Assembly (NCBI GenBank): GCA_041589495.1
Contig: JBFHVM010000001.1
Span: 1 to 38,337 of the forward strand
DNA: 38,337 nucleotides
Direction of reading: 5' to 3'
Source: Oleiphilaceae bacterium
GTDB lineage: Bacteria > Pseudomonadota > Gammaproteobacteria > Pseudomonadales > Oleiphilaceae
Below are positions 3,057 through 24,433 of the stretch, one piece after another (the stretch's first letter is position 1; each line of letters opens with the position of its first letter). Both the position numbers and the translations under genes were made by a program. Under the pieces are notes generated by a model. That model was not told where the DNA came from. It did no database searches and saw only the letters and a list, made by a program, of their open reading frames with translations.

Positions 3057-3824
3057 TTGATTCCCATGCCCCTACTCCTGCTACTCCTCGCTTTTATACC
3101 CACTGTATTCGCCCAAGACCATGTGCGACTGGCTAGTGGAGAGTGGCTGCCGTATCAGGGAGAAATGTTGCAAGACGATGGTTTCGTCACCCAGATCGTT
3201 AAAGAAGCTTTTGCTTCGGAAGGAGTGTCCATCGGTTTGGTGTACCTGCCATGGAAACGCGGGTATGAAATGACTAAGCGCGGGGACTATGACGGCGCAT
3301 TTATGTGGCGTTATTCGGAGGAGCGTGGTGAACACTTTCTGTTTTCGGAACCCCTGATTGAAAACCAGGCAGTTATGTTTCATCGCAAGGGCATAGACTT
3401 TGAATGGACTAGTGGTGAATCACTGCTCGGTTATGTGATTGGCGGCACTATTGGCTATCACTATGAGTTTAGTGAATATCCTGGGGTAGAGATTGACTGG
3501 GTGGAATCAGATCGGGTAAATCTCAAGAAACTGCTACATGGTCGTGTGGATCTGTTCGCGCTGGACAAACGGGTCGGTTACCACATGTTGCAAAAATACT
3601 TTGCGTTTCATGAAGCCGCACAGATCACCCATACTCCCTGGTATGGAGAACCCATCGCCTATCACCTTCTCATTAGCCGCAAAACTCCCAACGCAAAACA
3701 GTTGCTGAGTCGTTTTGACCAAGGCTTAAGAAAGCTTCGAGAGTCGGGGCGTTACGCGAAAATCATGCGTGCCGCTGATCAGGGGGCGTATTCGACTAGC
3801 TATGCATCGCAGCCTCATCGATAA
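3057..3824 (+). CDS. periplasmic solute-binding protein family 3-like protein (orphan, no transporter partners)
   Basis: Signal peptide MPLLLLLLAFIPTVFA-QD. An alternative ATG at 3066 is plausible. The pattern LASGEWLPY...LPWKRGY...YDGAF is typical of orphan transporter substrate-binding-domain proteins. Confidence 0.65.
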   Translation: MIPMPLLLLLLAFIPTVFAQDHVRLASGEWLPYQGEMLQDDGFVTQIVKEAFASEGVSIGLVYLPWKRGYEMTKRGDYDGAFMWRYSEERGEHFLFSEPLIENQAVMFHRKGIDFEWTSGESLLGYVIGGTIGYHYEFSEYPGVEIDWVESDRVNLKKLLHGRVDLFALDKRVGYHMLQKYFAFHEAAQITHTPWYGEPIAYHLLISRKTPNAKQLLSRFDQGLRKLRESGRYAKIMRAADQGAYSTSYASQPHR

Positions 3825-7119: not shown

Positions 7120-9632
<2,513 letters not shown>

Positions 9633-10990: not shown

Positions 10991-11192
10991 CAAGTTAATA
11001 GTGTGCGTGAGGCGCAGAATCCCGGAGTATGCGGGTCAATTTGAGGATGACGAGTGGCGAGTTGCCCATTATTGAGCTATTAGATACGGCATAACTCGGG
11101 GTAAACAGATTTGTGTTTGAGTTGGATGGTGGTGCGGATCTGTGCTGGGCAACTGAGTTCCATAGCCTTAAGGGTGGCAGACCAAAGCAGCA

Positions 11193-12662
11193 ATGCAGCG
11201 CGCTTTGGTTGTCCTAATATCTGTAGTCATATTCAACACTTCAGAAGTGAGGTTGCAAATCAAAGGGCATCCATACATTGTCGCTACCGGGACGACATCG
11301 GCATTTTTGGGTGACGAGCGCTTGTTGCGCGAGTTTGTCATTGGTGATCAGGCGCAGCGTGAGCGTATTGCGCATGGTCAAAACGCCATTCTTTACTTGA
11401 TCAATGATAGTTATGACGGCTTGCGTGAGGGGCAGTGTCGCCTGGCTGTGAATAAAGACGAAGGACTGTTGGAAAAATACCGAGAGTTCTTGGGGCGTCC
11501 TATTGCCGAAATCCCAGATCCTTTTGATTGTCACGCTAGTTTTGCCGAACATTTTATCGCAGCCTTACTCAAACGACTGCGTTCTCTCGATATTCATCCG
11601 GTGGTGATGGATAGCTATCGCGGATACAAAAGTGGCGCCTATCAGGCATACGTTGAGCTGGTCTTTAATCGTTACCAGGAAATACAGGCGCACCTGGCCG
11701 CATGTTATCCCCAGTTCAGGCTGCACAACTTGTTTCGGGTGCAGTGTCATTCCTGTCAGAGGATCGATGAAACCGATATCACAGAGGTAACTGAAGATAC
11801 TGTCGCGTTCAGGTGCAAGGCTTGTGGCTTGGAAGGGCCCCAGCCGCGAGCTGAGATCAAAGGTAAATTAAGCTGGAAGCTTGATTGCGCGGCACGCTGG
11901 AATATCTACGGTATTCATGCCGAAGCCTTCTCCAAATCACACTGCAGTGAATTAGGGAGTTACGATATTTCAGGGTTTATCTCCAAAGAATACTTTGAAG
12001 GTAACGTACCTGTGGCACTTCGCTATGGTGAGCTAAAACTCGACAACGAACTATCCTACCGCTTACTGGACATACTGCCACCAACGATGTTCAAGCAACT
12101 ATTACTCGAAAACCCTGAGCGTGACCTGGAACTGACAAAGGCTTCGATAGAGCATTTTTGTCGCCGTACCGAAGTTGTGCCAGGCATGAGTTACGTGGAT
12201 TTTGTTAAACGGGAATTACCGTTGCTGGCCATCAGTGATCGTTTGCCGGGCGAAGCGGCTTTTTTGCACAACAGTCGTTTCGATACGCAGGAACTTTTGT
12301 ATTATGGTAACCGTTTCTCGGGCTACTATTTTCATCAGGAATACGATATTTCACTGGCGGGGGCTGATGCCATTACCACAGTAAGCAGAGATGTAGCTCA
12401 GGCGGCACAAAGCATATTGCATTATACACTCGAGGTGCGACGCAATGAGGACTGGAGCGAAGAGCAAAAGCAGAGTCATTTGGCCGAGTATTTAAAAATC
12501 AGGCAGAGTATCCCCGGGGTGTTTCCGTATTTGCGCAAAATCTTTGGTCAGCAACAGGGGCCGGGCATTGCCTCGTTATTAATTTCACTGCCACTGGACT
12601 ATCTGAACGTGATCCGGATGGCGGTCGGGTTTTACGTTAGCCAGAAGGCTGGCGAAGTGTAA
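11193..12662 (+). CDS. class I lysyl-tRNA synthetase-like protein with degenerate catalytic signatures (putative pseudo-synthetase)
   Basis: Collinear blocks with archaeal-type LysRS-1: FLGRPIAEIPDPFDCHASFAEHF, YKSGAY, a CxxC...CxxC zinc ribbon (CHSC...CKAC), GKLSWKLDCAARWNIYGIHAEAFSKSH and GSYD. The HIGH position reads FLGD, and the KMSKS loop seems absent after RYGELKLDN. The start codon is uncertain. Confidence 0.6.
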   Translation: MQRALVVLISVVIFNTSEVRLQIKGHPYIVATGTTSAFLGDERLLREFVIGDQAQRERIAHGQNAILYLINDSYDGLREGQCRLAVNKDEGLLEKYREFLGRPIAEIPDPFDCHASFAEHFIAALLKRLRSLDIHPVVMDSYRGYKSGAYQAYVELVFNRYQEIQAHLAACYPQFRLHNLFRVQCHSCQRIDETDITEVTEDTVAFRCKACGLEGPQPRAEIKGKLSWKLDCAARWNIYGIHAEAFSKSHCSELGSYDISGFISKEYFEGNVPVALRYGELKLDNELSYRLLDILPPTMFKQLLLENPERDLELTKASIEHFCRRTEVVPGMSYVDFVKRELPLLAISDRLPGEAAFLHNSRFDTQELLYYGNRFSGYYFHQEYDISLAGADAITTVSRDVAQAAQSILHYTLEVRRNEDWSEEQKQSHLAEYLKIRQSIPGVFPYLRKIFGQQQGPGIASLLISLPLDYLNVIRMAVGFYVSQKAGEV

Positions 12663-12734
12663 ACTGAACCGTAATATCGACAACTTAGACTGCGGTGGGG
12701 CCTTCGGCCTACAAAAATAAAAGGAGCTAGCAAG

Positions 12735-13553
12735 ATGAACACAGCAAAAAAAATACTGCTCGGTTTGGGTATAGCCGTTTTGTTGGGGGCTTGTGGAGGG
12801 GGAGAAGAAGCGCAACCCGAGCAGCAGAGCACATACGAGCGCATCAAGCAGGAGGGTGTGTTGCGCTGGGGGGCCGATGTGATTGGTGGTATTCCTTATG
12901 TCTACGAGGACCCTGAAAATCCGGGGCAGTACATCGGTTTTGAAATGGATATTGCCAAAGCGATTGCGAAGCAATTGGGTATCAGGCAGGAGATGGTCAT
13001 TAGAGCTTGGGATTCGCTGATTCCAGAATTGCAGAAAGGTAGCTTCGATATGGCAATGAACGGTATCGAAAATACGGAAGACCGCAGTAAGATCGTGCAG
13101 TTTTCAGAACCCTATTTTGTCTACTCTCAGCAGATTACCGTGCGAAAGGAGACCGAAGGCGTAAGCTCTCTGGACGATTTGAAAGGTAAAAAGGTCGCCA
13201 CCCTGTCGGGCACCGCCGCAGAGGATATTCTGCGCGGAATTTCCGAGATTGATGTACATATCAATCCAGAAATTATCTATAGCTATCAGGAACTTGAAGA
13301 TGGTACGGTTGATGCGGTAGTGCTTGATACTCCCATTGCGGCAGCTTATGGCGCAACCAACCCAAAATTCAAAAACGTGGGCGAAACCTTTGCTCCCGGG
13401 CACTATGTTATTGCGTTCAGAGATGAAGATAAGGCGCTGAAAGCGGCAGTGGATGCAGCAATTAAAGCGATGAAAGCGAATGGCGAGCTTACTGCCATTT
13501 ACAAGAAGTGGGGCATTATGAATCCCTTTCAGGCCAGTATCGGTATTGAATAG
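12735..13553 (+). CDS. amino-acid ABC-type substrate-binding lipoprotein (SBP family 3), orphan
   Basis: RBS AAAGGAG. Lipobox LLGAC-GGG. Motifs GF(E/D)(M/I)DI, WDSLIPELQKGSFDM and typical lobe-2 motifs. No permease or ATPase is adjacent. Confidence 0.85.
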   Translation: MNTAKKILLGLGIAVLLGACGGGEEAQPEQQSTYERIKQEGVLRWGADVIGGIPYVYEDPENPGQYIGFEMDIAKAIAKQLGIRQEMVIRAWDSLIPELQKGSFDMAMNGIENTEDRSKIVQFSEPYFVYSQQITVRKETEGVSSLDDLKGKKVATLSGTAAEDILRGISEIDVHINPEIIYSYQELEDGTVDAVVLDTPIAAAYGATNPKFKNVGETFAPGHYVIAFRDEDKALKAAVDAAIKAMKANGELTAIYKKWGIMNPFQASIGIE

Positions 13554-14989
13554 TGTCGGGCAGTCACTTCTTTTGTGATCAATGCAGTGATCGGGGCGAA
13601 CCACAAACGGTCTGCTCCGTCATTGATGCTGCCGAATTGGCGCGCGTAGCGGTACTAGACGTCGAGGGCGTTAAGCAGGCTATTCAGGCGATGCAGGGTG
13701 TTGTGCCTCCTAAAGGTGTCGTCTTCGAATTTATCTTGCGCCTGCGTGGCGCGATAGAGTCTCGATATGATGAGCTACTGGTCTGCCTGCAGGAAGAAAG
13801 CGGATTTACTGCTGAAGATAACCGCGAGGTATTGGCAGGTATTATCGATTACCTGGAATGCTTCGATAAGTATTCCGAGGCCTGTACTTGGTCTGAAGAG
13901 CCTGCCATTCCGCACAGTTTTAACGGGTCAGAACAGCGTTACATGCAGATTGTTTCTAAGCCTGTATCCTGCGTTGGCGTAATGGTGCCGCAGAATGCCT
14001 CACTGGGCCTGGCCGTGATTGCTTTGGTATCGGCTTTGGCTGCCGGTGCACGCGTTATTATAAGGCCGTCTATGCAGTGTGCAGCCTCTGGAGCATTGCT
14101 GGCACAGATATTGGCACAAAGCGCCCCTCCAGGGGGCTGTGTTGCGGTGGTTAATTGTAAGGCGAGCGATTTTTTGCAGGCTTGTCTGGCGTCTCCGCAG
14201 ATTGGTATGGTGCACTATATAGGCAGTGATCGCTTTGCACAGGGCGTATTGAGCGAGTCATTCAGGCACGGCAAGCAGGCCCTCGTGGATGGCGAGGGTA
14301 ATGGCATGCTGTTGATTGGTGATGATTATCCGCTGGATAAGGCCTGTGAACTGATTTGCTCGGCTGCCACCCGGTTCAACGGCCAAACCTGCACCTCGGT
14401 TAACGGTGTGCTGGTTTCGCCTGAACGTTTACCAGCTTTGCAACAAAGCCTGGCAGAGCGCTTTTCAGCATTGCGCGTGGGCGACCCCCGCGATGGACTC
14501 TGTCATTTAGGGCCATTATTCAGTGGCGCGCAGGCTATTGCTCAGTGCGAACGGGCGCGGGACACACAGCAGGCAATAGTGATCACAGGAGGCGAAGCGC
14601 GGGGGAACTATTTGCCGGCGACCTTGGTAGTGAACCCCGCAATATCAGATGAGATGGTTCGGGAGGGCTTTTTTGGGCCGCTGGTTTGGCTAGCCGGCGT
14701 GCCACAAAAGGAGTGGGGCAGGTGGATGGCAGCTAATCGTTTTCCGCTTAGTGACACGCTGCTGAGCAACGACGCAGACTTGCAACAGTGGTTCATCGGC
14801 CAGAGCCGAGCAGGCCGGCTGTGTTTTAACGAAGACCCCTCCATTGAGTCAATGTTTGAGCCTTGGGGCGGTTACGCGCCGGCTGCCAGTAATCCGGTTT
14901 CACACTGGATTCATAAATATACCAGCACCGTGCAATTCGATGCCGCCAGGGCTTCGTTGGGTGCGATCACGCGTTTGCCTCGATGTTGA
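13553..14989 (+). CDS. divergent aldehyde dehydrogenase-family protein
   Basis: The GTG start overlaps the SBP stop (TAGTG, 13551-13555). Catalytic-Cys block FNGQTCTSVNGVLV. The position of the usual LELGGK reads LVDGEGNG. CxxC lies near the N-terminus (FFCDQCSD). Confidence 0.75.
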   Translation: MSGSHFFCDQCSDRGEPQTVCSVIDAAELARVAVLDVEGVKQAIQAMQGVVPPKGVVFEFILRLRGAIESRYDELLVCLQEESGFTAEDNREVLAGIIDYLECFDKYSEACTWSEEPAIPHSFNGSEQRYMQIVSKPVSCVGVMVPQNASLGLAVIALVSALAAGARVIIRPSMQCAASGALLAQILAQSAPPGGCVAVVNCKASDFLQACLASPQIGMVHYIGSDRFAQGVLSESFRHGKQALVDGEGNGMLLIGDDYPLDKACELICSAATRFNGQTCTSVNGVLVSPERLPALQQSLAERFSALRVGDPRDGLCHLGPLFSGAQAIAQCERARDTQQAIVITGGEARGNYLPATLVVNPAISDEMVREGFFGPLVWLAGVPQKEWGRWMAANRFPLSDTLLSNDADLQQWFIGQSRAGRLCFNEDPSIESMFEPWGGYAPAASNPVSHWIHKYTSTVQFDAARASLGAITRLPRC

Positions 14990-15038
14990 AAGTAGTCGGA
15001 ATAGAGTGTTGTATGCTTAGTTGTGTGAGGGGCCTGTG

Positions 15039-16880
15039 ATGAAGTCGCTGGGAATCAGAGGGCAGCTCATTGTTATGGTTGTCACGGCGGTGGTGGCCTC
15101 GATACTGGCCGCGTCTGTGTTTATCCGTGAGTTGGTTTACGATCATATTCTTGATCAGAAACAAACCACTGCCGAAATACTCACGGCCTCTGTAGTGCAT
15201 GATATTAAGTACGAGTACAACTTTCGCAACCAGGTCGCGATTAATTCCATCATCAGTAAATATCTGACCTACTACCGTATTATCAATGATATTCATTATT
15301 ACGCCATGAATACTGAGCGCGTCGTCGACATCTATGCTCCAAGTATTACAGTGCTCGGTGAAAATCGAGAGGTTGATGCCCAGATACAACAGGCCCTCTA
15401 TAAGGCGCGCCCCAGTCTTGACATGACCGAATCCAAGGCCGATGGCCTCAGCATCCGATCTGTCGCGCCGGTTCTGCAGGGCTCCAAAGTCATTGGCGCT
15501 GTCGTTATTCAGCTATCCATTAACGATATCAGAAAAATCATGTCGGCCATTATGCAGCGTATTTATCTGATTATGTTTGTGGTGTTGGCGGTTGCCATTG
15601 TGGTGCTGTTTGCTTTTTTGCGCTCTAGCCTCTTGCGTCGATTGACACATCTCATGCGCATGACACGTGAAGTGTCGAGTGGAAATTACACCATTAAAAT
15701 TGAGGATCCGCGCTATGACGAACTCGGGCGACTGGCGCGATCCTTCAATCAGATGACCGAAGATCTGCAGTCATCACGCATTGAGATTGAAAACCATAAC
15801 CGGCAGCTCGATCAAAAAGTAAAAGATGCCACTGCGGAGCTGCAGGAAGCCTACGAGAATCTCAAAAACGCGCAGAGTCAGATCGTACTCAGCGAGAAAA
15901 TGGCGTCTCTGGGGGTGCTTATTTCGGGGATTGCGCACGAGATCAATACGCCCGTGGGGGCCATTGCCAATATGTCGAATCACATGCGTGATATTGTGAA
16001 AGATTTACCTGGCATTCTGGTGCAGTGTATTGAGGACAATGTCGATGCCCGTAAACTTTCTCTGCTGTTGGACGCAGTGATAGAGTCGGCGTCGGTCATT
16101 GCCTCCCCGCCTCATTTTAAGACGGTGCGTGAAGTGGAGGCTATTTTTCGAGAAGCCGGCATTGAACAATGGCGTGAACGCGCCAGCACATTGGCCAGTT
16201 TTCATTTTGTCGACAAGGATCAGGTAGAGGCGTTTCTCGATTGTTTTAAATCGGATGCGGCATTTGGCCTGTTTGAAGTCACCGGCTATATTGCCAACTC
16301 GGCCAGTATTTGTGGCACCAGCTCACAGAAGATTCAGGATATTATTCAGGCGCTCAAATTTTATGCATACACGGATAAGGACAGAGTGGAGTTGACTAAT
16401 CTGAACGATTCAATCCAAACCTCCCTGGTACTCAATAAGAATCGATTAAAGCATTCCGTAGATCTGCAGCTTAATTTGGAAGAAAACTTGCCCGCCATTC
16501 CCTGTACCAGCGAAATTCATCAGATATGGACGGTTTTGGTGAATAACGCGCTCGATGAGTTTGAGAGCAAAGGCGAAGATTTCCCTGGTGAAATTCGAAT
16601 ACGCAGTTTCGTTGATGATTACCATGCCTGCGTGAGTATCGAAGACAATGGCGGGGGAATTCCGCGTAAAATCATTGACAAGATATTCGACCCCTTCTTT
16701 ACTACCAAGGACATCGGTAAGGGAACGGGGTTGGGACTGTCCATCGTTACGGGGATCGTCAATAAGCACGGAGGCAAAATTGACGTAGAGACGGGCGGTG
16801 GTAAAACGCTGTTTACCGTGCGTATTCCACTGGCTGGAATGCGAGAGAACGGGCATGGCATGCTGTCGACAGAAGATTAG
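15039..16880 (+). CDS. membrane sensor histidine kinase (2 TM, periplasmic domain, HAMP, HisKA, HATPase)
   Basis: Start moved to the ATG at 15039, 6 nt after GAGGGG. TM helices LIVMVVTAVVASILAASVF and IYLIMFVVLAVAIVVLFAF. H-box SGIAHEINTPVGAI, G1 EDNGGGIP, G2 GTGLGLSI. Confidence 0.85.
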   Translation: MKSLGIRGQLIVMVVTAVVASILAASVFIRELVYDHILDQKQTTAEILTASVVHDIKYEYNFRNQVAINSIISKYLTYYRIINDIHYYAMNTERVVDIYAPSITVLGENREVDAQIQQALYKARPSLDMTESKADGLSIRSVAPVLQGSKVIGAVVIQLSINDIRKIMSAIMQRIYLIMFVVLAVAIVVLFAFLRSSLLRRLTHLMRMTREVSSGNYTIKIEDPRYDELGRLARSFNQMTEDLQSSRIEIENHNRQLDQKVKDATAELQEAYENLKNAQSQIVLSEKMASLGVLISGIAHEINTPVGAIANMSNHMRDIVKDLPGILVQCIEDNVDARKLSLLLDAVIESASVIASPPHFKTVREVEAIFREAGIEQWRERASTLASFHFVDKDQVEAFLDCFKSDAAFGLFEVTGYIANSASICGTSSQKIQDIIQALKFYAYTDKDRVELTNLNDSIQTSLVLNKNRLKHSVDLQLNLEENLPAIPCTSEIHQIWTVLVNNALDEFESKGEDFPGEIRIRSFVDDYHACVSIEDNGGGIPRKIIDKIFDPFFTTKDIGKGTGLGLSIVTGIVNKHGGKIDVETGGGKTLFTVRIPLAGMRENGHGMLSTED

Positions 16881-16942
16881 ACAGAGCCCTTGTCGTGCCA
16901 GGAAGGTGTCGCGTACAGTGCGACCTCTAATGGGAGAAGCAA

Positions 16943-19252
16943 ATGTCTGAACATGCTTTACCCACATACGAGTTACACGTGGTCTGTGTGGATGACGATC
17001 AGGAGTTTTTGCGCTCGTTGGGATTGATATTGCCCGATCAACTCAATGCCATGCGCGATGATAATGGTTGGCTGCGGTTTTCGTTTTTTGAAACTCCTGC
17101 CGAAGCGCTCGAATTTCTCGCAGAAATCAAGTCCATGGGCGAAGAAGTCGCTCTCATCGTCAGTGACCAGAAAATGCCGGCCATGAAAGGCACGGAGTTT
17201 CTACTTAAAACCAAAGAATTTGCTCCCGAGGCCTCCTGCGCTCTCCTCACAGGCTATGCCGGCATCGAGTCGGCAGTAGATGCCATCAACAGCAAACTAC
17301 TCAATCGCTATCTTACAAAGCCCATCGAAGATGAACGTAATTTCGTGCTCACCCTGCACGAATTGATTCAGAGCTATTTAAGGGAGCGCACCATTGACCG
17401 GCAAGGTCGGGCGTTAAGGGATTTATATACCTTCGCCAACACACTCAATAGCATCGAAGATTTTCAGTCCGCTCTTGATTATATCGTGCTATTTACCAGT
17501 AAAGCTTTGCAGTGCCAGCGTGTGTCGCTGATGCTATTGGAGGATGAGCCCGAACCCTACCTAAAAATCGCAGCTGCCAAGGGCTTGCCTGAGCGGGTTG
17601 TGCGATCCACCCGCTTATCCATGGGAGATAGGGTGGCCGGCAACGTCATGCAGAACCGTCAGGCTGTGTATGCCAAAGATATTGCTGATCTGGGTGTAGA
17701 ACAGAAACACCAGCCTTTTGAGGAGGCTGTGTTTATGTCGGTGCCCATGTTATGGGCCAATCTTAACTCGAGCCAGAATCCGGTCGGTGTCATTAATGCC
17801 ACCGACAAGGATGAAGGGCAGGTATTCGATCAGAGTGATCTCGAAATACTCACCTATATCTCAAATACAGCCACTATTGCGATCAACAACCATTTAAATG
17901 CGCAAAAGCTGAAAGAAGCTTACATGGAAAGTAAAACCCAGGCTGCTGCGTTATCGCACATGATGCATCATAACGGCTTAACAGGGCTGCCAAACCGTGC
18001 CGATTTTGATAACAAACTGCGTAGACTGGTGCGATCTCGCACCGCCATCAACTCCCTGACCGTGCTGATGATCAATCTGGACCGGTTTCGGGATATTAAC
18101 TGTGCTGTGGGACATCAGGGCGGAGATCTTGTTCTCAAGCTGATTGCCAATCGCCTGGCCAGTATGGTCGACAAGCAATGGTTGTTTCATATTGGCACTG
18201 ATGAGTTTGCCTTGATCATGCAAGATGTAGGAGAAGCCGAAACGCTCACCTTCATTGGCGAAATTAAGTCACGTATGGATACGCCGATTGAGTTTGAGGG
18301 CAATTCGATTGCCGTGCATATGACCTATGGTATCGCGCGCTATCCCGATCACGCCTCAGACTTCAAGCTTCTTATTCAAAAGGCTGATGTGGCATTGAAT
18401 CAAGCCAAACAGATGGGCAAAAGCGTACATATTTACGATGGCGACAAAGATTTGTACAACACGCGCCGCCTCACTATGACCAATGAGTTGCGACACGCCA
18501 TTACTACCGATGAACTGGTGCTCTACTATCAGCCTAAAATCAGCCTCAAAACAGGGCATGTGGAGGGGGTAGAGGCGCTTGTTCGTTGGATTCATCCTAA
18601 ACATGGCTTTACCCCACCAGATCAGTTCATCCCTTTAGCCGAACAGACGGGGCTCATGGAAGCTCTCACCGATTGGGTCTTGCGCACTGCAGCGAAGCAG
18701 TGTGCGTTGTGGGAGACGAAAGGCCTCGGTGGTATCAGTGTCGCAGTGAATCTGTCGACATTAAATCTACTCGAGGCCGGATTTGCTCAAAAGCTTAAAG
18801 CCATCAGTCATGAAGCATCCATTCATGTCAGTAAACTGCATCTTGAAATTACTGAAAGTGTGATTATGAGTAATCTTGATTTGACCTTGCATACGCTGGA
18901 ACAGCTCAGCCTGATGGGATTTAACATCGACCTGGACGACTTTGGTACGGGGTATTCCTCTTTGGCCTATGTGAAGAATCTCCCTATCGATGCCATCAAG
19001 ATAGATCGCTCGTTCATCAAGGACATCAACGAAGACGAGCACGACGTGCAGATCGTGCAATCCATTGTGGAGCTTGGACATAGTCTTAATCTTAAATTAA
19101 TCGCCGAGGGTGTCGAGAACGAAGAAACGGTACACCTACTGCGGCGCATGGGCTGTGACTCGGTACAAGGCTTTCATTTCAGTAAACCTCTACCGGCCGA
19201 CGAGCTGGAGCAGTGGCTGAAAGGTTTCCACTTTCAGGCGGCCTCTGCGTAA
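16943..19252 (+). CDS. response regulator REC-GAF-GGDEF(degenerate)-EAL, probable c-di-GMP phosphodiesterase
   Basis: REC with LIVSDQKMPAMKG. GGDEF position reads GTDEF (HIGTDEFALIM), and there is no RxxD I-site 5 residues upstream. The EAL domain is intact: EALVRW, DDFGTGYSSL, KIDRSF, EGVE, QGFHFSKP. Confidence 0.9.
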   Translation: MSEHALPTYELHVVCVDDDQEFLRSLGLILPDQLNAMRDDNGWLRFSFFETPAEALEFLAEIKSMGEEVALIVSDQKMPAMKGTEFLLKTKEFAPEASCALLTGYAGIESAVDAINSKLLNRYLTKPIEDERNFVLTLHELIQSYLRERTIDRQGRALRDLYTFANTLNSIEDFQSALDYIVLFTSKALQCQRVSLMLLEDEPEPYLKIAAAKGLPERVVRSTRLSMGDRVAGNVMQNRQAVYAKDIADLGVEQKHQPFEEAVFMSVPMLWANLNSSQNPVGVINATDKDEGQVFDQSDLEILTYISNTATIAINNHLNAQKLKEAYMESKTQAAALSHMMHHNGLTGLPNRADFDNKLRRLVRSRTAINSLTVLMINLDRFRDINCAVGHQGGDLVLKLIANRLASMVDKQWLFHIGTDEFALIMQDVGEAETLTFIGEIKSRMDTPIEFEGNSIAVHMTYGIARYPDHASDFKLLIQKADVALNQAKQMGKSVHIYDGDKDLYNTRRLTMTNELRHAITTDELVLYYQPKISLKTGHVEGVEALVRWIHPKHGFTPPDQFIPLAEQTGLMEALTDWVLRTAAKQCALWETKGLGGISVAVNLSTLNLLEAGFAQKLKAISHEASIHVSKLHLEITESVIMSNLDLTLHTLEQLSLMGFNIDLDDFGTGYSSLAYVKNLPIDAIKIDRSFIKDINEDEHDVQIVQSIVELGHSLNLKLIAEGVENEETVHLLRRMGCDSVQGFHFSKPLPADELEQWLKGFHFQAASA

Positions 19253-19274
19253 GCTGCATCTCAGGAGAGAGCCA

Positions 19275-19631
19275 ATGCCTATTCAACATATACCCAAACT
19301 GGCAGAGCAGACGCTTACCCGTTTTGACGCGGGCCCTGGCGTACGTGCTTCAGTCTGTGACCTGCTGGTATCACACGATACGGATAAACCCATGACGGCG
19401 GGTTTGTTCAGACTGGAGAAAGGTGAGAGTCTCACTTATACCTATGAGTATGACGAAATGAAGCTGGTACTCGAGGGCGAGTTTTTGCTCAGCGACGATC
19501 AGGGCGGCGAATTTCGCGCGCAGGCGGGCGATCTCCTCTACTTTGCCAAAGGTACGACGGTTACCTTCGATACGCCACAGTTTGGTCTTGGCTATTATGT
19601 GGGGCAAAGGGGCTTGGACGAAGGCTCTTAG
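19275..19631 (+). CDS. small cupin-domain protein (cupin_3/DUF861-like)
   Basis: RBS AGGAGAG. 118 aa. The pattern EMKLVLEGEF.L.DD.G.....AGDLLYF.KGT is typical of single-domain cupins. Located 22 nt after the upstream regulator gene. Confidence 0.6.
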   Translation: MPIQHIPKLAEQTLTRFDAGPGVRASVCDLLVSHDTDKPMTAGLFRLEKGESLTYTYEYDEMKLVLEGEFLLSDDQGGEFRAQAGDLLYFAKGTTVTFDTPQFGLGYYVGQRGLDEGS

Positions 19632-19639
19632 TCCTCGTT

Positions 19640-20620
19640 CTAGTTGGGCAAAGTATACAAGCCAGTCTCGGTGAAATAAGCCTGTAGCACCTGTTTTGCG
19701 GTGACCGCTTTGTCGTGACATAAGCGAGTAAGCAAAGGCAGTTGTTGCGCCGCCTGTCGGACAGAATGTTCGATTATGCCTTCTGGCAACTCCCGCCAAC
19801 GTTGACAGACCACATGCAGGCAGGTGGAAGCGTTATCTGTGGAATCAAGATTTAATATACGAGATATAAGTGCTTCCCAGCGGGGTATCTCCCCTTTAAG
19901 TTCATTTTTTTCGCAGAGCAGGTCGGTGCCCAGTTGTTCCAGCAGGCTACTGTGGATCATTTCGAGATTGATTTTACTGACGGCTTTGGTGTGGCGTTCC
20001 TTATGGTCCTGAAATTCTTCGGCATAAATCATGACCATCACCGAGGTAGGTGCGTAACGATAGTATTGCTCGTATTGATAGTGGGAAGATAGTGCCGAAC
20101 AGAACAAGCTCTTTGGGTGAGGCTTGCCTTCAGAATTGGTGGTAAGGCGCCCGACAATTGGGTTGAGTATGTTGCCGTTTTTTTGCCGTTGATAGCCTGG
20201 CAGACTTCTGGCCAGAGCCTGTTTAACCCTTTTGCGATCCCTGCGCAGATTGGCGGCAGCAGCGTTCAGGCCCCAAAACAGAGTTTCACTTTCCTTTAGA
20301 GCGTGTTGGTGGTTGTTCCATTCGTGGTGAGGCAATAACAACCAGCGGCCAACGCGCTTTCCATTCTCTTTGGCGGTATAAAACGCCTTCATTTCGCCAC
20401 TTAAAAAGTGCACGAGCGATTGATCGAGATTGTCGATTGGTGGCAGATACGTGACATGGGCTAATCCCGGCGCGTAGGGGCATACGCTTTCTGCACGCGC
20501 TATCCAACCGCGGAGGCGTGCTTCACGCTCTGCAAATCCATTGTTATCTTCAGAACCGTTTCCCAAGGTAAACGGGGTTCTGGGCTGACTATTTGCACTG
20601 TACTTACTTGCCAATTTCAT
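19640..20620 (-). CDS. hypothetical protein, 326 aa, no family recognised
   Basis: Good RBS (AAGGAG 8 nt before the ATG at 20620). Uninterrupted ORF, divergently arranged with the LysR gene. The composition looks like a soluble protein. Confidence 0.6.
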   Translation of the reverse strand: MKLASKYSANSQPRTPFTLGNGSEDNNGFAEREARLRGWIARAESVCPYAPGLAHVTYLPPIDNLDQSLVHFLSGEMKAFYTAKENGKRVGRWLLLPHHEWNNHQHALKESETLFWGLNAAAANLRRDRKRVKQALARSLPGYQRQKNGNILNPIVGRLTTNSEGKPHPKSLFCSALSSHYQYEQYYRYAPTSVMVMIYAEEFQDHKERHTKAVSKINLEMIHSSLLEQLGTDLLCEKNELKGEIPRWEALISRILNLDSTDNASTCLHVVCQRWRELPEGIIEHSVRQAAQQLPLLTRLCHDKAVTAKQVLQAYFTETGLYTLPN

Positions 20621-20745
20621 CTGCGTCTACTCCTTGTTGCGGCAGATCCCGTCTTGTTGTTTTTCACCTTGACTAGTATGGGATTAGGCAATAAAAGATT
20701 AAAACGCAAAGATTTCCTGGCAGTTGTGACAAAAGTTCAAAAATT

Positions 20746-21654
20746 ATGCATGACCAGTTTGATGTATTCGTTTCCGTTGTAGAAATGGGAAGTTTTTCCA
20801 CTGCAGCCAAAAAACTGCACAAATCCCCCTCGGCGGTGAGCAAACAAATGGCGGCGCTTGAGCAGGCGCACGCAACCCAGTTTTTTGATCGGACCACGCG
20901 CAGTCTTAATCTCACCGAAGCCGGAAAAATTTACTATGCACATTGCAAGGAAATGCAGCATCGCATTCGTAACGTGAGTAAGGAACTGGATTCGCTTGCA
21001 GGTAATCCTGCAGGCGAAATACGTATAACCTGGCCTGCAGGCTTAGCATATTCACGTGCAGCGGAGGCGCTTGGTGAATTTGCCAAGCAATACACCGAGG
21101 TGCGCTTTGATATTGTCGCAACCAATGACGTGGTCAACATTAAGGAAGAGGGGATTGATATTGCTTTTCGCACCTCGCCCAAAGAGAGTAGCGACCTTGT
21201 AGGCATTGAGTTATTTGAGGTGCGCCCTATGGTTTGCGCCAGCCCCGATTTCATCGACCGCCACGGCCCTCTTAAACAACTCTCCGACTTGGCTGAAGTG
21301 CCGAATATTCTGCCCAGCTATATGAATCTCGTTCAAAAAATGCGCCCCAGTTTCCCCGAACTAGCGCAGCTAAAGTTTGAAGAGCAACACCGGGCCAGCG
21401 ATATAGCCGCCATGCTCAATCTGTGTCGAAACGGCCTGGGAGCGGCGTTGTTGCTTGAACATATCGTCGAACGAGAGCTGCAGAGTGGTGAATTGGTAAA
21501 CGTGTTCCCGGATCTGCCAGTGCCAAACTTGCCGGTGTACATGATCCACCATCGACTGCAGCACACGCCGCAACGCTTGCGGGTGTTTATTGACTTCTTC
21601 AAACGATATTTTCTGTATCCGGACGAAGTGACAGGCATAGATAGATGCGATTGA
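20746..21654 (+). CDS. LysR-family transcriptional regulator
   Basis: N-terminal wHTH FDVFVSVVEMGSFSTAAKKLHKSPSAVSKQMAALE. 302 aa. Classical divergent arrangement. Confidence 0.9.
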   Translation: MHDQFDVFVSVVEMGSFSTAAKKLHKSPSAVSKQMAALEQAHATQFFDRTTRSLNLTEAGKIYYAHCKEMQHRIRNVSKELDSLAGNPAGEIRITWPAGLAYSRAAEALGEFAKQYTEVRFDIVATNDVVNIKEEGIDIAFRTSPKESSDLVGIELFEVRPMVCASPDFIDRHGPLKQLSDLAEVPNILPSYMNLVQKMRPSFPELAQLKFEEQHRASDIAAMLNLCRNGLGAALLLEHIVERELQSGELVNVFPDLPVPNLPVYMIHHRLQHTPQRLRVFIDFFKRYFLYPDEVTGIDRCD

Positions 21655-21855
21655 CGAGACCTGGGTTGCTATCCATGAATGTTCGCGTCCCGCACGGTGC
21701 CTCTGACACAATACTGTCATCCAACGGTCCCTCGTCGTCATCCCGTACATGATCAGGGACCCATACGCGCGCCACCAGAGCAGTATGGAACCCGGGGTCA
21801 GAGTCTCACACGGAACGACATTAAGTTAAGGATTATTCAACAATAAAACGGAGCT

Positions 21856-22632
21856 TTATCGCGGACTATAGTGGCGCTTAAGCCACTGGCTGAGCCCTTC
21901 CAAACCCGGAAATAAAACCCGTTCGGTGATGTTGGCCTGATCCAGCTTGTCGCGAATTTCCCACTTGATCTTGGCAGGAATAATGATTTTTTCGCACTCT
22001 GTGCTGCCCATGGTCGATTCCAGGCTCATACCGGGATTGGAGGTGACCGAGAATAAACCATGCTGGTTAACAATGCGGGCATCTACAGAGGGGGGCTCGA
22101 AGAATATAAAAAACGGATGCGACGAAAGCTGTTCAAAAGCATCAAGGCTGGTGACCAGACTGTCGAGCATTTCTACCGTAAATACATTGCCGCCTTCCTG
22201 TTCCAGACAGGCTTTTAGCGCGCCTGGAAGTTGGCGGTAACAGTCGTGATAATTCACCTTCCAGATTACGCCATCCACGTCGGCATAGCGAATTTCGGCC
22301 GTAGCGAAATGCATCCCTACCAAAGGTGAGTAAGTCCAGTCGAGCAGGCGGGTGGGTAAGCCGTGGTGTTGTCCCATGGTGAGCCAATGCCACACGGATT
22401 CGTCCGCCTGAAAGCTGCGATGGCCGTATTTGCGAAAGTTGCGCAAAAGGTGCTTTTCCAATTGCGGAAAATCGCCACCCAGTCGCATGAGCGAGGTGGC
22501 GAGAGAAAACTCGTGGTTGCCCATGCCGCGAAAAGCATAGGGCGAACGGTGTCGCTGTATATGGTCATTCCAGGAACCGGAAAATAAAATTTCCTGAAGG
22601 TGTTCCCAGGATTCAGCTGTCACCGTTTGCAT
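21856..22632 (-). CDS. FRG-domain protein
   Basis: RBS GGAGTGAGGG. Near-N-terminal YAFRGMGNHEFSLATSL (FRG motif), followed by LRNF...HHGLPTRLLDWT..PLV..HFA, a pattern I associate with Pfam FRG. 258 aa. Confidence 0.65.
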   Translation of the reverse strand: MQTVTAESWEHLQEILFSGSWNDHIQRHRSPYAFRGMGNHEFSLATSLMRLGGDFPQLEKHLLRNFRKYGHRSFQADESVWHWLTMGQHHGLPTRLLDWTYSPLVGMHFATAEIRYADVDGVIWKVNYHDCYRQLPGALKACLEQEGGNVFTVEMLDSLVTSLDAFEQLSSHPFFIFFEPPSVDARIVNQHGLFSVTSNPGMSLESTMGSTECEKIIIPAKIKWEIRDKLDQANITERVLFPGLEGLSQWLKRHYSPR

Positions 22633-22687
22633 ACGCCCTCACTCCATCGCTAGCTCGCTATCAGCTTACGATAACACATACGGTGCA

Positions 22688-24337
22688 TTAAAGCGGTGAA
22701 CGTTGATCGTCTACCAGTACCAGGCTGTGTGCTTCGAACAAGGTGTCATCACATTCGCCGCTGACACCCGCTTCCTGTCCGAGGGAGGGGGTGCCGCCCA
22801 GCGATACTTCGCTACTGGAATCGGTAATGGTGACGGTAACCACTTGCACATCATCATTGAGCGTGACGTTAAGCGTATTCACGGTTTGTCCACACAAGCT
22901 GACGTCCTCAAGGGTTAGCACAATCTGGTCTTCGGTGACATCAGAGACTACGCCCACAGCTTGGTCCAACAGCTCAGGTTCTCCATCGAGTATCACCAAC
23001 GCGGCGTTGAGCCACATGTTTTGGAGTTCCTCGGTCATGATTACTCCGTCTACCTCGGCATGCATGCCTTGCCTGATCGCCGTGTAGTCGAGCAGCTGAC
23101 CCTGTTTCGTCACGATGCGCGTGCCGTTTCTGGTCTCATCGCCCGCCTGCAATACGACAGGTAGGGGGTTACGGTTAATCGTCGGTTCAGGGGGCAACTC
23201 CAGTTCGAATCCGTTCATGTCGGCATCGTTCGCGGGCTTTCCTTCAAGGCTGGCAAAGACACCCTGCTTCAGCACAAGCGCATCGACGCGCAAGCGTGGC
23301 CAATGGCGTTTGCCGTTTATGCCTTCGTGATCGACCACGACCAGATGATCGTCAAGTTCTTCGGGAATAAAATCACAGTCGATACTCAGTTCCTGTTCGT
23401 TCGCGCCCGCGTAGAGATCCCATACGATACATTCACCCAGGTCTGGCAGGTCACCAAGATCAATCTCAGGCCAATCTTCAAAGAGCTGCGGGCGCTTGGG
23501 CCAACCCACAATCGCGAGCTCCTGACCAATCTGGTCTTCGTTAAACAAAGATTCAAGCACCTGTGGCGCTCCAGCCTCGGTGATATTATCAAACAGTGCG
23601 GAGTGCTCATCGAGAGACACCAGAACACAGCCAGCACTGTCTGCATCCATGGTTGGTAAAGCGTGGCATAGCAGTATTTGCTGCGAATTTTCATCATAAG
23701 CGGCGATTTTGCCTTCTAGGCGCACGAGTCTGGCAACAAAATCATCTTCTACCGCATCAACAAAGACCACAGGGCGGAACTGGTAACCATTGTTGTTACC
23801 AATAACGTGGATGGAGCGGCGGGCATCTATATCCAGCTGCAGGGCGAGTGTTGCGCCATCTTCCACTTCAATGCAATCACGAATGTTCAGATCGAGTTTA
23901 CGGTTGCCAGGTAGTTTCGGATATTCGGGATCTGCACCCGCATCAGCGAAAATCAGCTCGAGCCCGTCCTGGGCCAATGTCAGGCGCACCTTGCAATATT
24001 CACCTACTGGAACGCCGTCGGTAAAGGAAAAGGGGATAGATTCGTGCCGCAGTCGTAATAAGTCGAAGGTGTCTGCGGGGCCATCGAACAGTGTGACGCG
24101 TTCTTCGTCGTCACCCATCAATTCTATTTTCTCAATGGTCACATTAATGGACGAAAACAGATCGGGGTCTGCAGGTGCGTCGGTGAGGAGTATGCCTACG
24201 GTTCCGGTGCCCTTGCCCGAATTCGTACTTTTTGTGTCGTTACTACCGCTGCTACAACCCTGAAGCAAAGCGAGTGCGCAGAGAGTAAAAAAAAGAACGA
24301 GTAAATTTAAGGTGGTGCGTGAATGGTTATGCCGCAT
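22688..24337 (-). CDS. DUF4382-like outer-surface/periplasmic lipoprotein with an extended C-terminal region
   Basis: RBS GGGGAGGG. Lipobox LLQGC-SSG. N-terminal module GTVGILLTDAP...INVTIEKIEL...FDLLRL...GEYCKVRL...LQLDIDARRSIH resembles DUF4382. 549 aa. Confidence 0.6.
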   Translation of the reverse strand: MRHNHSRTTLNLLVLFFTLCALALLQGCSSGSNDTKSTNSGKGTGTVGILLTDAPADPDLFSSINVTIEKIELMGDDEERVTLFDGPADTFDLLRLRHESIPFSFTDGVPVGEYCKVRLTLAQDGLELIFADAGADPEYPKLPGNRKLDLNIRDCIEVEDGATLALQLDIDARRSIHVIGNNNGYQFRPVVFVDAVEDDFVARLVRLEGKIAAYDENSQQILLCHALPTMDADSAGCVLVSLDEHSALFDNITEAGAPQVLESLFNEDQIGQELAIVGWPKRPQLFEDWPEIDLGDLPDLGECIVWDLYAGANEQELSIDCDFIPEELDDHLVVVDHEGINGKRHWPRLRVDALVLKQGVFASLEGKPANDADMNGFELELPPEPTINRNPLPVVLQAGDETRNGTRIVTKQGQLLDYTAIRQGMHAEVDGVIMTEELQNMWLNAALVILDGEPELLDQAVGVVSDVTEDQIVLTLEDVSLCGQTVNTLNVTLNDDVQVVTVTITDSSSEVSLGGTPSLGQEAGVSGECDDTLFEAHSLVLVDDQRSPL

Positions 24338-24433
24338 AAGAAGTCCCTCCCCTTGGATTCGTCATTGTAACGCGCTTACACAATGTTACGAAAGGGCTAA
24401 TTATTGACCAGTTTCTCGTTGGTGTTGGTGCGC

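Follow-up and report, generated by a model that had tools for sequence, protein, structure and literature searches.

Why should a gene resembling lysyl-tRNA synthetase (LysRS) stand beside genes for an amino-acid-binding lipoprotein and an aldehyde dehydrogenase (ALDH), directly downstream of a bacterial operon for arginine catabolism? The question is raised by a stretch of 38,337 nucleotides from an Oleiphilaceae bacterium (assembly GCA_041589495.1, contig JBFHVM010000001.1, positions 1 to 38,337), referred to here as the window. A first-pass annotation described three same-strand genes at 11193-14989 as a module dedicated to a basic amino acid or amino-aldehyde, consisting of the relic of a synthetase, an orphan binding protein and a dehydrogenase translationally coupled to it, the whole lying inside the arginine regulon. 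Its coordinates are exact, down to the spacer between the first two genes and the overlap between the last two, and the three families are confirmed by Pfam and NCBIfam. The unit, however, comprises five genes rather than three and is found across distant phyla. The reading that we favor, and to which we give somewhat better than even odds, is that this is a horizontally acquired five-gene operon in which the binding protein is the co-sensor of a histidine kinase, while the synthetase-like protein and the ALDH make or convert the lysine-like compound that is sensed.

The five-gene cassette

The genes of the cassette, all on the forward strand, are as follows.

11193..12662, + strand: LysRSl, a pseudo-synthetase derived from class-I LysRS (PF01921 tRNA-synt_1f, 157 bits)
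12735..13553, + strand: SBP_bac_3 lipoprotein, the solute-binding protein (SBP) of the cassette (Pfam, 124 bits; lipobox Cys20)
13551..13555, + strand: TAGTG stop/start overlap of the SBP and ALDH genes (read directly in the sequence)
13553..14989, + strand: divergent Cys-ALDH (PF00171 Aldedh, 178 bits)
15021..16880 (likely start ATG 15039), + strand: HAMP histidine kinase (Pfam; first transmembrane helix, 145-aa periplasmic loop, second transmembrane helix, HAMP, H-box HEINTP, HATPase)
16943..19252, + strand: response regulator, REC-GAF-GGDEF(GTDEF, degenerate)-EAL (Pfam)

All five reading frames are intact. The same-strand run extends past 14989, with the kinase gene beginning 31 bp on and the regulator gene 62 bp after the kinase. 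LysRSl and the SBP gene are separated by a 72-bp spacer (12663-12734) in which AAGGAG (12721-12726) lies 8 nt ahead of the start codon of the SBP gene, ATG at 12735, and the SBP stop codon TAG (13551-13553) shares its G with the ALDH start codon GTG (13553-13555). Translation of LysRSl probably starts at 11247 (GTG) or 11253 (TTG) rather than at 11193, since residues 1-24 are disordered in the structural model described below and are unconserved relative to a sister genome, and since the database call is 469 aa long.

Distribution and gene order

A profile built from 27 members of the LysRSl family was run on a collection holding one genome per species and yielded 47 loci. We rebuilt their neighborhoods by tblastn of the window proteins against the loci, followed by open reading frame (ORF) calling and BLAST clustering, and two architectures emerged. 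Type A carries, on one strand and in this order, LysRSl, the SBP lipoprotein, the Cys-ALDH, the HAMP kinase and a protein with a receiver domain (REC). About 20 complete loci and 2 more cut by contig ends have this arrangement, and they represent at least four named phyla. The carriers are the window, a sister Oleiphilaceae metagenome-assembled genome (MAG), a Competibacteraceae MAG, another proteobacterium, Nitrospirota, Krumholzibacteriia (Krumholzibacteriota), ten Eisenbacteria and several unclassified MAGs; metagenome contig L066 also carries it. The identity of gene order and strand in about 22 loci of such distant phyla is far beyond chance.

Median gaps at the four type A junctions, computed with the start codon nearest each preceding stop, are -4, -1, +1.5 and +1 nt, and the SBP-ALDH junction falls between -4 and +2 nt in most of 21 loci (median -1). 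Because these median gaps are tiny across type A loci, the SBP-ALDH coupling is a family trait. The proposal of a dedicated module holds as to its conserved gene set and its coupling; in extent the unit has five genes. Pairwise distance matrices of four cassette genes correlate with r of 0.76-0.93, as expected of genes that are inherited or transferred as one unit, and common ancestry by itself also contributes to such values.

Type B was found in about 22 loci of Abditibacteriota, Armatimonadota and one Chloroflexales MAG. In these loci a membrane protein of 900-1000 aa that ends in GAF-GGDEF-HD-GYP is followed by LysRSl and then by c8, a secreted protein of unknown family, while a divergent arm encodes ALDH, an EamA/DMT transporter and a methyltransferase of the NNMT/PNMT type. 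A comparison of c8 with Gcw_chp gave no detectable relationship (hhalign probability 1%). The complete genome AP024152.1 (Abditibacteriota IAD-21) is among the type B carriers, and no cultured carrier of type A was seen. Two Nitrospiria loci have LysRSl followed directly by ALDH. At one of them, L019 (1378-8338), the genes encode Gcw_chp, LysRSl, ALDH, a TonB-dependent receptor and an SBP of the ABC_sub_bind family (PF04392), and neither SBP_bac_3 nor a kinase is present.

Six type A loci have EamA genes alongside, and five loci (four of type A plus L019) have an upstream gene for a Gcw_chp outer-membrane protein. Together with the methyltransferase and the TonB-dependent receptor, these accessory genes point to a small molecule that is trafficked and modified. 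LysRSl stands alone in two genomes, with its partners located elsewhere: SBP-ALDH-kinase in G041, and ALDH-EamA beside a GGDEF-HD-GYP gene in G042. In both architectures ALDH accompanies LysRSl in every case where the contigs reach far enough. In the Abditibacteriaceae genome G042 (L065, G042:C2:26000-44000; L063), an in-frame TAG interrupts the partner ALDH and the GAF-GGDEF-HD-GYP gene is matched as eight separate pieces, so that either this is a decaying copy or the long reads contain frameshift errors.

No tRNA gene consistently linked to the cassette was found across the loci. The lone tRNA-Lys(CTT) near any cassette (L031, 12914-12986) lies just past c8 in a type B locus, and its proximity is probably a coincidence. 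Long ORFs in L010 and L048 were considered as fusions and rejected as open frames in high-GC DNA. On L066, the first gene of a type A cassette that is normal in other respects encodes a 763-aa LysRSl-EAL fusion (P0019; 416-2704). At the DNA level, its EAL part and a GGDEF-EAL gene on contigs L067 and L072 of the same metagenome share 93-98% identity. Fused forms of LysRSl were also sought among longer proteins and none was found, which is weak evidence.

The synthetase paralog LysRSl

Profile matches of LysRSl cover only the catalytic half of PF01921 (positions 22-279 of 360). On TIGR00467 (lysS_arch) the protein scores 140.8 bits, below the cut-off of 147.55, and matches positions 16-268 of 515 only. 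The likeness of its fold to class I LysRS (LysK) extends over the whole length. An AlphaFold model (predicted local distance difference test, pLDDT, 88; predicted template modeling score, pTM, 0.81) has as its top Foldseek match 1IRX, LysRS-I of P. horikoshii (E 7e-21, 517 aligned columns, TM score 0.61), ahead of GluRS and CysRS. By model and Foldseek the Rossmann catalytic core, the zinc-binding insertion and the C-terminal helical domains are all present.

A joint alignment was made of 39 LysRSl paralogs and 22 canonical LysRS-I sequences. They have 27 core positions in common, including the four zinc-site cysteines, which are invariant in LysRSl (C185, C188, C208 and C211), and they share the blocks PDPxGCHxSYAEHF and GKLxW(K/R)xD..RW as well as a C-terminal GP..LL motif. 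Unlike the canonical enzymes, LysRSl has D41-E42-R43-x at the HIGH site (canonically H-(I/V)-G-N), with His replaced by Asp41 and Gly by Arg43, both invariant, and the KMSKS loop, 12-20 residues with (K)MSSS(K/R)G, is deleted in all the paralogs. LysRSl also differs from them in its subthreshold TIGR00467 score, in its signaling operon and in the presence of a housekeeping class-II LysRS in the same genome (contig C246, 593 bits); it is thus not the sole LysRS. Judged by these motifs, the canonical ATP-dependent activation of lysine is not open to LysRSl. A role as an antibiotic-resistance paralog of an aminoacyl-tRNA synthetase (aaRS) was considered and rejected, the ATP motifs being absent.

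The description of LysRSl as a synthetase relic is not borne out. The family has 61 invariant columns in a 27-sequence alignment, at 38-67% identity to the window protein. This strong constraint, the invariant D-E-R at the HIGH site, the four cysteines and the full-length fold indicate that LysRSl is a repurposed protein under selection and no decaying relic.

When 1.84 billion representatives were searched exhaustively with the profile, LysRSl paralogs made up only a few dozen clusters; canonical LysRS-I sequences scored below about 170 bits in this search and matched the first 270-300 profile positions only. An Atlas search for LysRSl returned LysRS-named clusters only. In the literature on class-I LysRS paralogs, on clusters of aaRS-like genes with ALDH and on PF01921 we found no description of the LysRSl family, and the five-gene operon is apparently undescribed so far. 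Only one class-I LysRS paralog was reported when 2,588 genomes were surveyed (PMC5388404), and the family has thus escaped attention.

The binding protein and the signaling chain

The SBP is the most conserved of the cassette genes, with 56-82% identity across phyla (mean, 64%). Its lipobox is LLGAC (Cys20), and a lipobox is present in the SBPs of all 21 homologous loci. The best PDB matches are AncQR and AncCDT-1. The protein retains the Arg/Asp clamp for alpha-amino acids (...TEDR, VLDTP), has N-G-I-E in place of the Ser/Thr loop, and scores far below the cut-offs of all NCBIfam equivalogs. A basic amino acid or an amino-aldehyde is a plausible ligand for the module.

The first-pass annotation had remarked that neither a permease nor an ATPase accompanies the SBP, and for the permease this proves to be general: none of the polar-amino-acid (HisQ/M) type is present in any of 21 cassette loci, within flanks of up to 10 kb. 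The SBP nevertheless does not stand alone. A periplasm-sensing kinase and a receiver protein follow it in every complete locus, and this accounts for an SBP that has no transport partners.

The topology of the kinase, two transmembrane helices around a periplasmic loop, is conserved in 11 loci. The 145-aa loop (residues 36-180) is 45% identical across phyla and has 18 invariant residues; the H-box HEINTP lies at 306, and HATPase_c scores 81 bits. The REC domain of the regulator (34.7 bits) has the acidic pocket and the Asp, the latter in LIVSDQ, and further motifs are GTDEF at 418, EAL at 544 and DDFGTG at 665. The kinase and the adjacent REC protein form a predicted two-component system, in which phosphate would pass from one to the other. 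Since the window regulator combines a degenerate GGDEF motif with intact EAL signatures, it is probably a cyclic di-GMP (c-di-GMP) phosphodiesterase, with c-di-GMP hydrolysis as its predicted output. The fifth type A gene always begins with REC, and what it carries as output differs between loci: the window and seven others have GGDEF-EAL, Eisenbacteria and relatives a second kinase core. In the window and at every type B locus, the output enzymes are those of c-di-GMP turnover.

The divergent aldehyde dehydrogenase

The cassette ALDH scores far below every NCBIfam equivalog cut-off, and its nearest relatives in NCBIfam and the PDB are aminoaldehyde and semialdehyde dehydrogenases. Equivalents of the catalytic Cys302 and the oxyanion Asn169 are kept (NG(E/Q)TCTS and VPQNAS in type A), except that a few type B proteins have Ser for Asn. 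In place of the general base Glu268 (ELGG) stands an invariant Asp, within DG(Q/E)GN, and the Q/E that follows is unconserved. The cofactor site is altered throughout the family: K192 has become an invariant Arg, the G-x-G turn N(C/S)LA, and E399 Gly. These three positions and E268 are near-universal in other ALDHs. The changes point to chemistry through a thioester and to an altered site for the cofactor or acyl donor. AstD of the adjacent arginine succinyltransferase (AST) operon (8163-9632) shares the ALDH superfamily fold; its TIGR03240 score is 785 bits and its E268, in ELGG, is canonical, whereas the cassette ALDH, with its altered motif, reaches 64 bits on the AstD subfamily model. A CxxC near the N terminus of the window ALDH is unconserved even in the sister genome.

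Insertion beside astB

Upstream of LysRSl lies a complete astC-aruF-aruG-astD-astB set, and LysRSl begins 202 bp past astB on the same strand, with no terminator predicted in between. In four congeners that have astB and lack LysRSl (G003, G004, G012 and G016), astB is directly convergent with astE and the genes of an arginine ABC importer. The window has an insertion at this point.

10991..24433, no strand assigned: block of about 13.4 kb between astB and astE, absent in the four congeners
19275..19631, + strand: EutQ-like cupin, 22 nt past the regulator gene (Pfam EutQ/Cupin_3)

The inserted DNA contains the cassette, the cupin gene, an unassignable 326-aa gene, and genes for a LysR regulator, an FRG protein and a DUF4382 lipoprotein. 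GC content is 0.48-0.49 across 10.5-21 kb versus 0.52-0.55 in the flanks. LysRSl was found in 1 of the 17 other genomes of the genus that were searched, and the spacer between astB and LysRSl is unconserved between the two carriers. No conserved linkage of the cassette with astCADBE was found: ast genes flank 2 of about 49 loci, both in Oleiphilaceae of the same genus, and the cassette, colinear in about 22 loci, passes the test of ast-independent co-occurrence that was proposed with the first-pass annotation. Because the astB genes of the congeners abut astE without the cassette and the spacer is unconserved, the position beside the AST operon is incidental. On this comparison the AST neighborhood is an insertion site rather than a functional context, and the cassette, which had been placed inside the arginine regulon, is unrelated to arginine succinyltransferase catabolism.

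The cupin gene has a 70% identical copy at the same position in the sister genome (L004), is shared with that genome only, and is possibly a lineage-specific sixth gene. At 19640-24337 of the window, the 326-aa gene is divergent from the LysR gene, the FRG and DUF4382 genes also lie here, and none of these recurs at other cassette loci. A promoter and terminator scan of the window gave fewer promoter-like sites than shuffled sequence did, and no Rfam elements were found within or ahead of the cassette. The astB genes of two congeners have one in-frame TAG each (G012:C51:4372-5703 and G016:C18:239059-240390). Upstream of the AST operon, at 3057-3824, a weak SBP_bac_3 protein (41 bits) that is unrelated to the cassette SBP adjoins a PhzF-like gene.

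Comparison with known systems

LysRSl may be likened to HisZ, the HisRS-like subunit of ATP phosphoribosyltransferase, which has been mentioned as lacking aminoacylation activity (PMC5388404). Both are aaRS paralogs with a partner enzyme, the role of LysRSl being putative; HisZ is a class II protein, specific for histidine and partnered with HisG, whereas LysRSl is of class I and is paired with ALDH. Cyclodipeptide synthases are class-I aaRS-like proteins that do without ATP motifs since their substrate is an already-activated aminoacyl-tRNA, and glutamyl-tRNA reductase converts an aminoacyl-tRNA to an amino-aldehyde via a cysteine thioester. By mechanistic analogy only, the LysRSl/Cys-ALDH pair could perform chemistry of the latter kind; it has no sequence relationship to either enzyme.

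The Rpf system of the diffusible signal factor (DSF) consists of the synthase RpfF, the sensor kinase RpfC and the REC-HD-GYP protein RpfG, and thus combines a small-molecule enzyme, a membrane kinase and a c-di-GMP-degrading receiver protein in one cluster. The cassette is like it in make-up, signal synthesis by the cassette being putative. The Rpf enzyme differs in being an enoyl-CoA hydratase in place of a pseudo-LysRS and an ALDH, and the Rpf cluster has no SBP. In LuxP-LuxQ, TorT-TorS and NspS-MbaA, a transporter-less periplasmic binding protein is encoded beside the membrane sensor that it controls, and NspS-MbaA feeds into c-di-GMP. The SBP and kinase of the cassette appear analogous to these pairs, which involve other SBP families and ligands and include no aaRS paralog or ALDH.

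Proposed function and alternative explanations

In the reading that we favor, the SBP lipoprotein, which would take no part in transport, would capture an alpha-amino-acid-like ligand in the periplasm and present this ligand to the 145-aa loop of the kinase. The kinase would then phosphorylate the REC domain, and phosphorylated REC would, in this genome, switch the EAL phosphodiesterase and lower c-di-GMP. In the cytoplasm LysRSl would supply a binding pocket of the lysine type, perhaps along with a surface for tRNA, while ALDH would supply a catalytic cysteine at a remodeled cofactor site. The two would together make the compound that is detected by SBP and kinase, which is the version we prefer, or would convert it, and in related cassettes the compound may be N-methylated and exported by EamA. 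Synthesis and export are favored because EamA and the methyltransferase recur, because there are no catabolic or transcriptional genes, and because aaRS-like proteins are generally used in biosynthesis. A more specific scheme is doubtful. In it, LysRSl would take lysine pre-activated as Lys-tRNA(Lys) and pass the acyl group to the ALDH cysteine; reduction of the thioester would give an amino-aldehyde or cyclic imine derived from lysine, and this product would be N-methylated in some lineages, exported by EamA and read back by SBP and kinase to set c-di-GMP.

Several observations weigh against the sensing-and-synthesis operon as we propose it. The window ALDH is 52% identical to its counterpart in the sister genome (L004, 6131-7522), compared with 68-85% for SBP, kinase, regulator and LysRSl and 80-86% for the flanking astB and astD; either relaxed constraint or replacement of the gene in this lineage could explain the difference. 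The window has no EamA, methyltransferase or Gcw_chp gene. We infer the contact between SBP and kinase from adjacency and conservation, and the chemistry may serve to make or to break the compound, the TonB-dependent receptor at L019 hinting at uptake. The LysRSl-EAL fusion on L066 may be a recent recombination or an assembly chimera, and nothing in our argument rests on it. Among the runs listed with the 8-kb cassette none is RNA, and all are marine metagenome DNA of one study.

If the hint of uptake were taken at face value, nothing need be made or exported at all: an exogenous amino compound would enter through an outer-membrane channel, be detected by SBP and kinase, and be oxidized or detoxified by ALDH in the cytoplasm, with LysRSl as a substrate-binding subunit. 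ALDHs usually oxidize aldehydes, and the aminoaldehyde and semialdehyde dehydrogenases nearest to the cassette enzyme agree with such a role, as do the Gcw_chp proteins upstream in five loci and the company of LysRSl and ALDH at L019, a TonB-dependent receptor and a second SBP. We nevertheless consider this explanation unlikely. The cassette has no importer, transcription factor or downstream catabolic enzyme, its output is c-di-GMP or a phosphorelay rather than gene induction, and both the general base and the cofactor site of its ALDH are non-canonical. EamA-family proteins are mostly exporters, and the small-molecule N-methyltransferase of type B suits biosynthesis better. Less likely still is a purely regulatory LysRSl which, in the manner of HisZ and HisG, would sense lysine or the charging of tRNA-Lys, act allosterically on ALDH or the c-di-GMP protein, and so couple biofilm signaling to the state of translation. 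LysRSl has lost both ATP signatures and kept the pocket residues and the full tRNA-synthetase architecture, most partner proteins have a GAF domain, and on L066 LysRSl occupies a sensor position ahead of an EAL domain. That fusion, however, is a single and possibly chimeric case with no fused forms among longer proteins to match it, no tRNA gene travels with the cassette, and both the invariant D-E-R and the constancy of a Cys enzyme as partner suggest catalysis beyond binding.

It is highly improbable that three of the genes supplement arginine catabolism, sharing the regulation of the AST operon and acting on an amino-aldehyde derived from arginine. The short, terminator-free distance from astB on the same strand, the same position in the sister genome and the resemblance of the SBP to Arg/Gln/Lys binders are what this idea has in its favor; synteny largely refutes it, given the rarity of ast beside the cassette, the four congeners in which astB abuts astE, the unconserved intergenic region of the two carriers and the fact that the unit numbers five genes and has a sensor of its own. 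An arrangement of unrelated genes brought together by chance, or a functionless and decaying synthetase remnant, would account for the degenerate motifs and for nothing else. It is refuted by an order kept across phyla, by the invariant columns of the family alignment, by five intact frames and by a confident structural model, and we assign it almost no weight.

Significance

For annotation, the label "lysyl-tRNA synthetase class I" is wrong for LysRSl genes, and the neighboring product labeled "amino-acid ABC transporter binding protein" probably belongs to a sensor. If the favored reading of a five-gene sensing operon is true, a conserved new offshoot of a translation enzyme would be added to the short list of aaRS paralogs with non-translational jobs. 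Should the Lys-tRNA scheme hold as well, the cassette would encode a tRNA-dependent autoinducer pathway of an undescribed kind. The favored reading, if true, would also mean that an unnoticed small-molecule signaling route leads into c-di-GMP control in the poorly known phyla Eisenbacteria, Nitrospirota, Armatimonadota and Abditibacteriota and in some marine Gammaproteobacteria.

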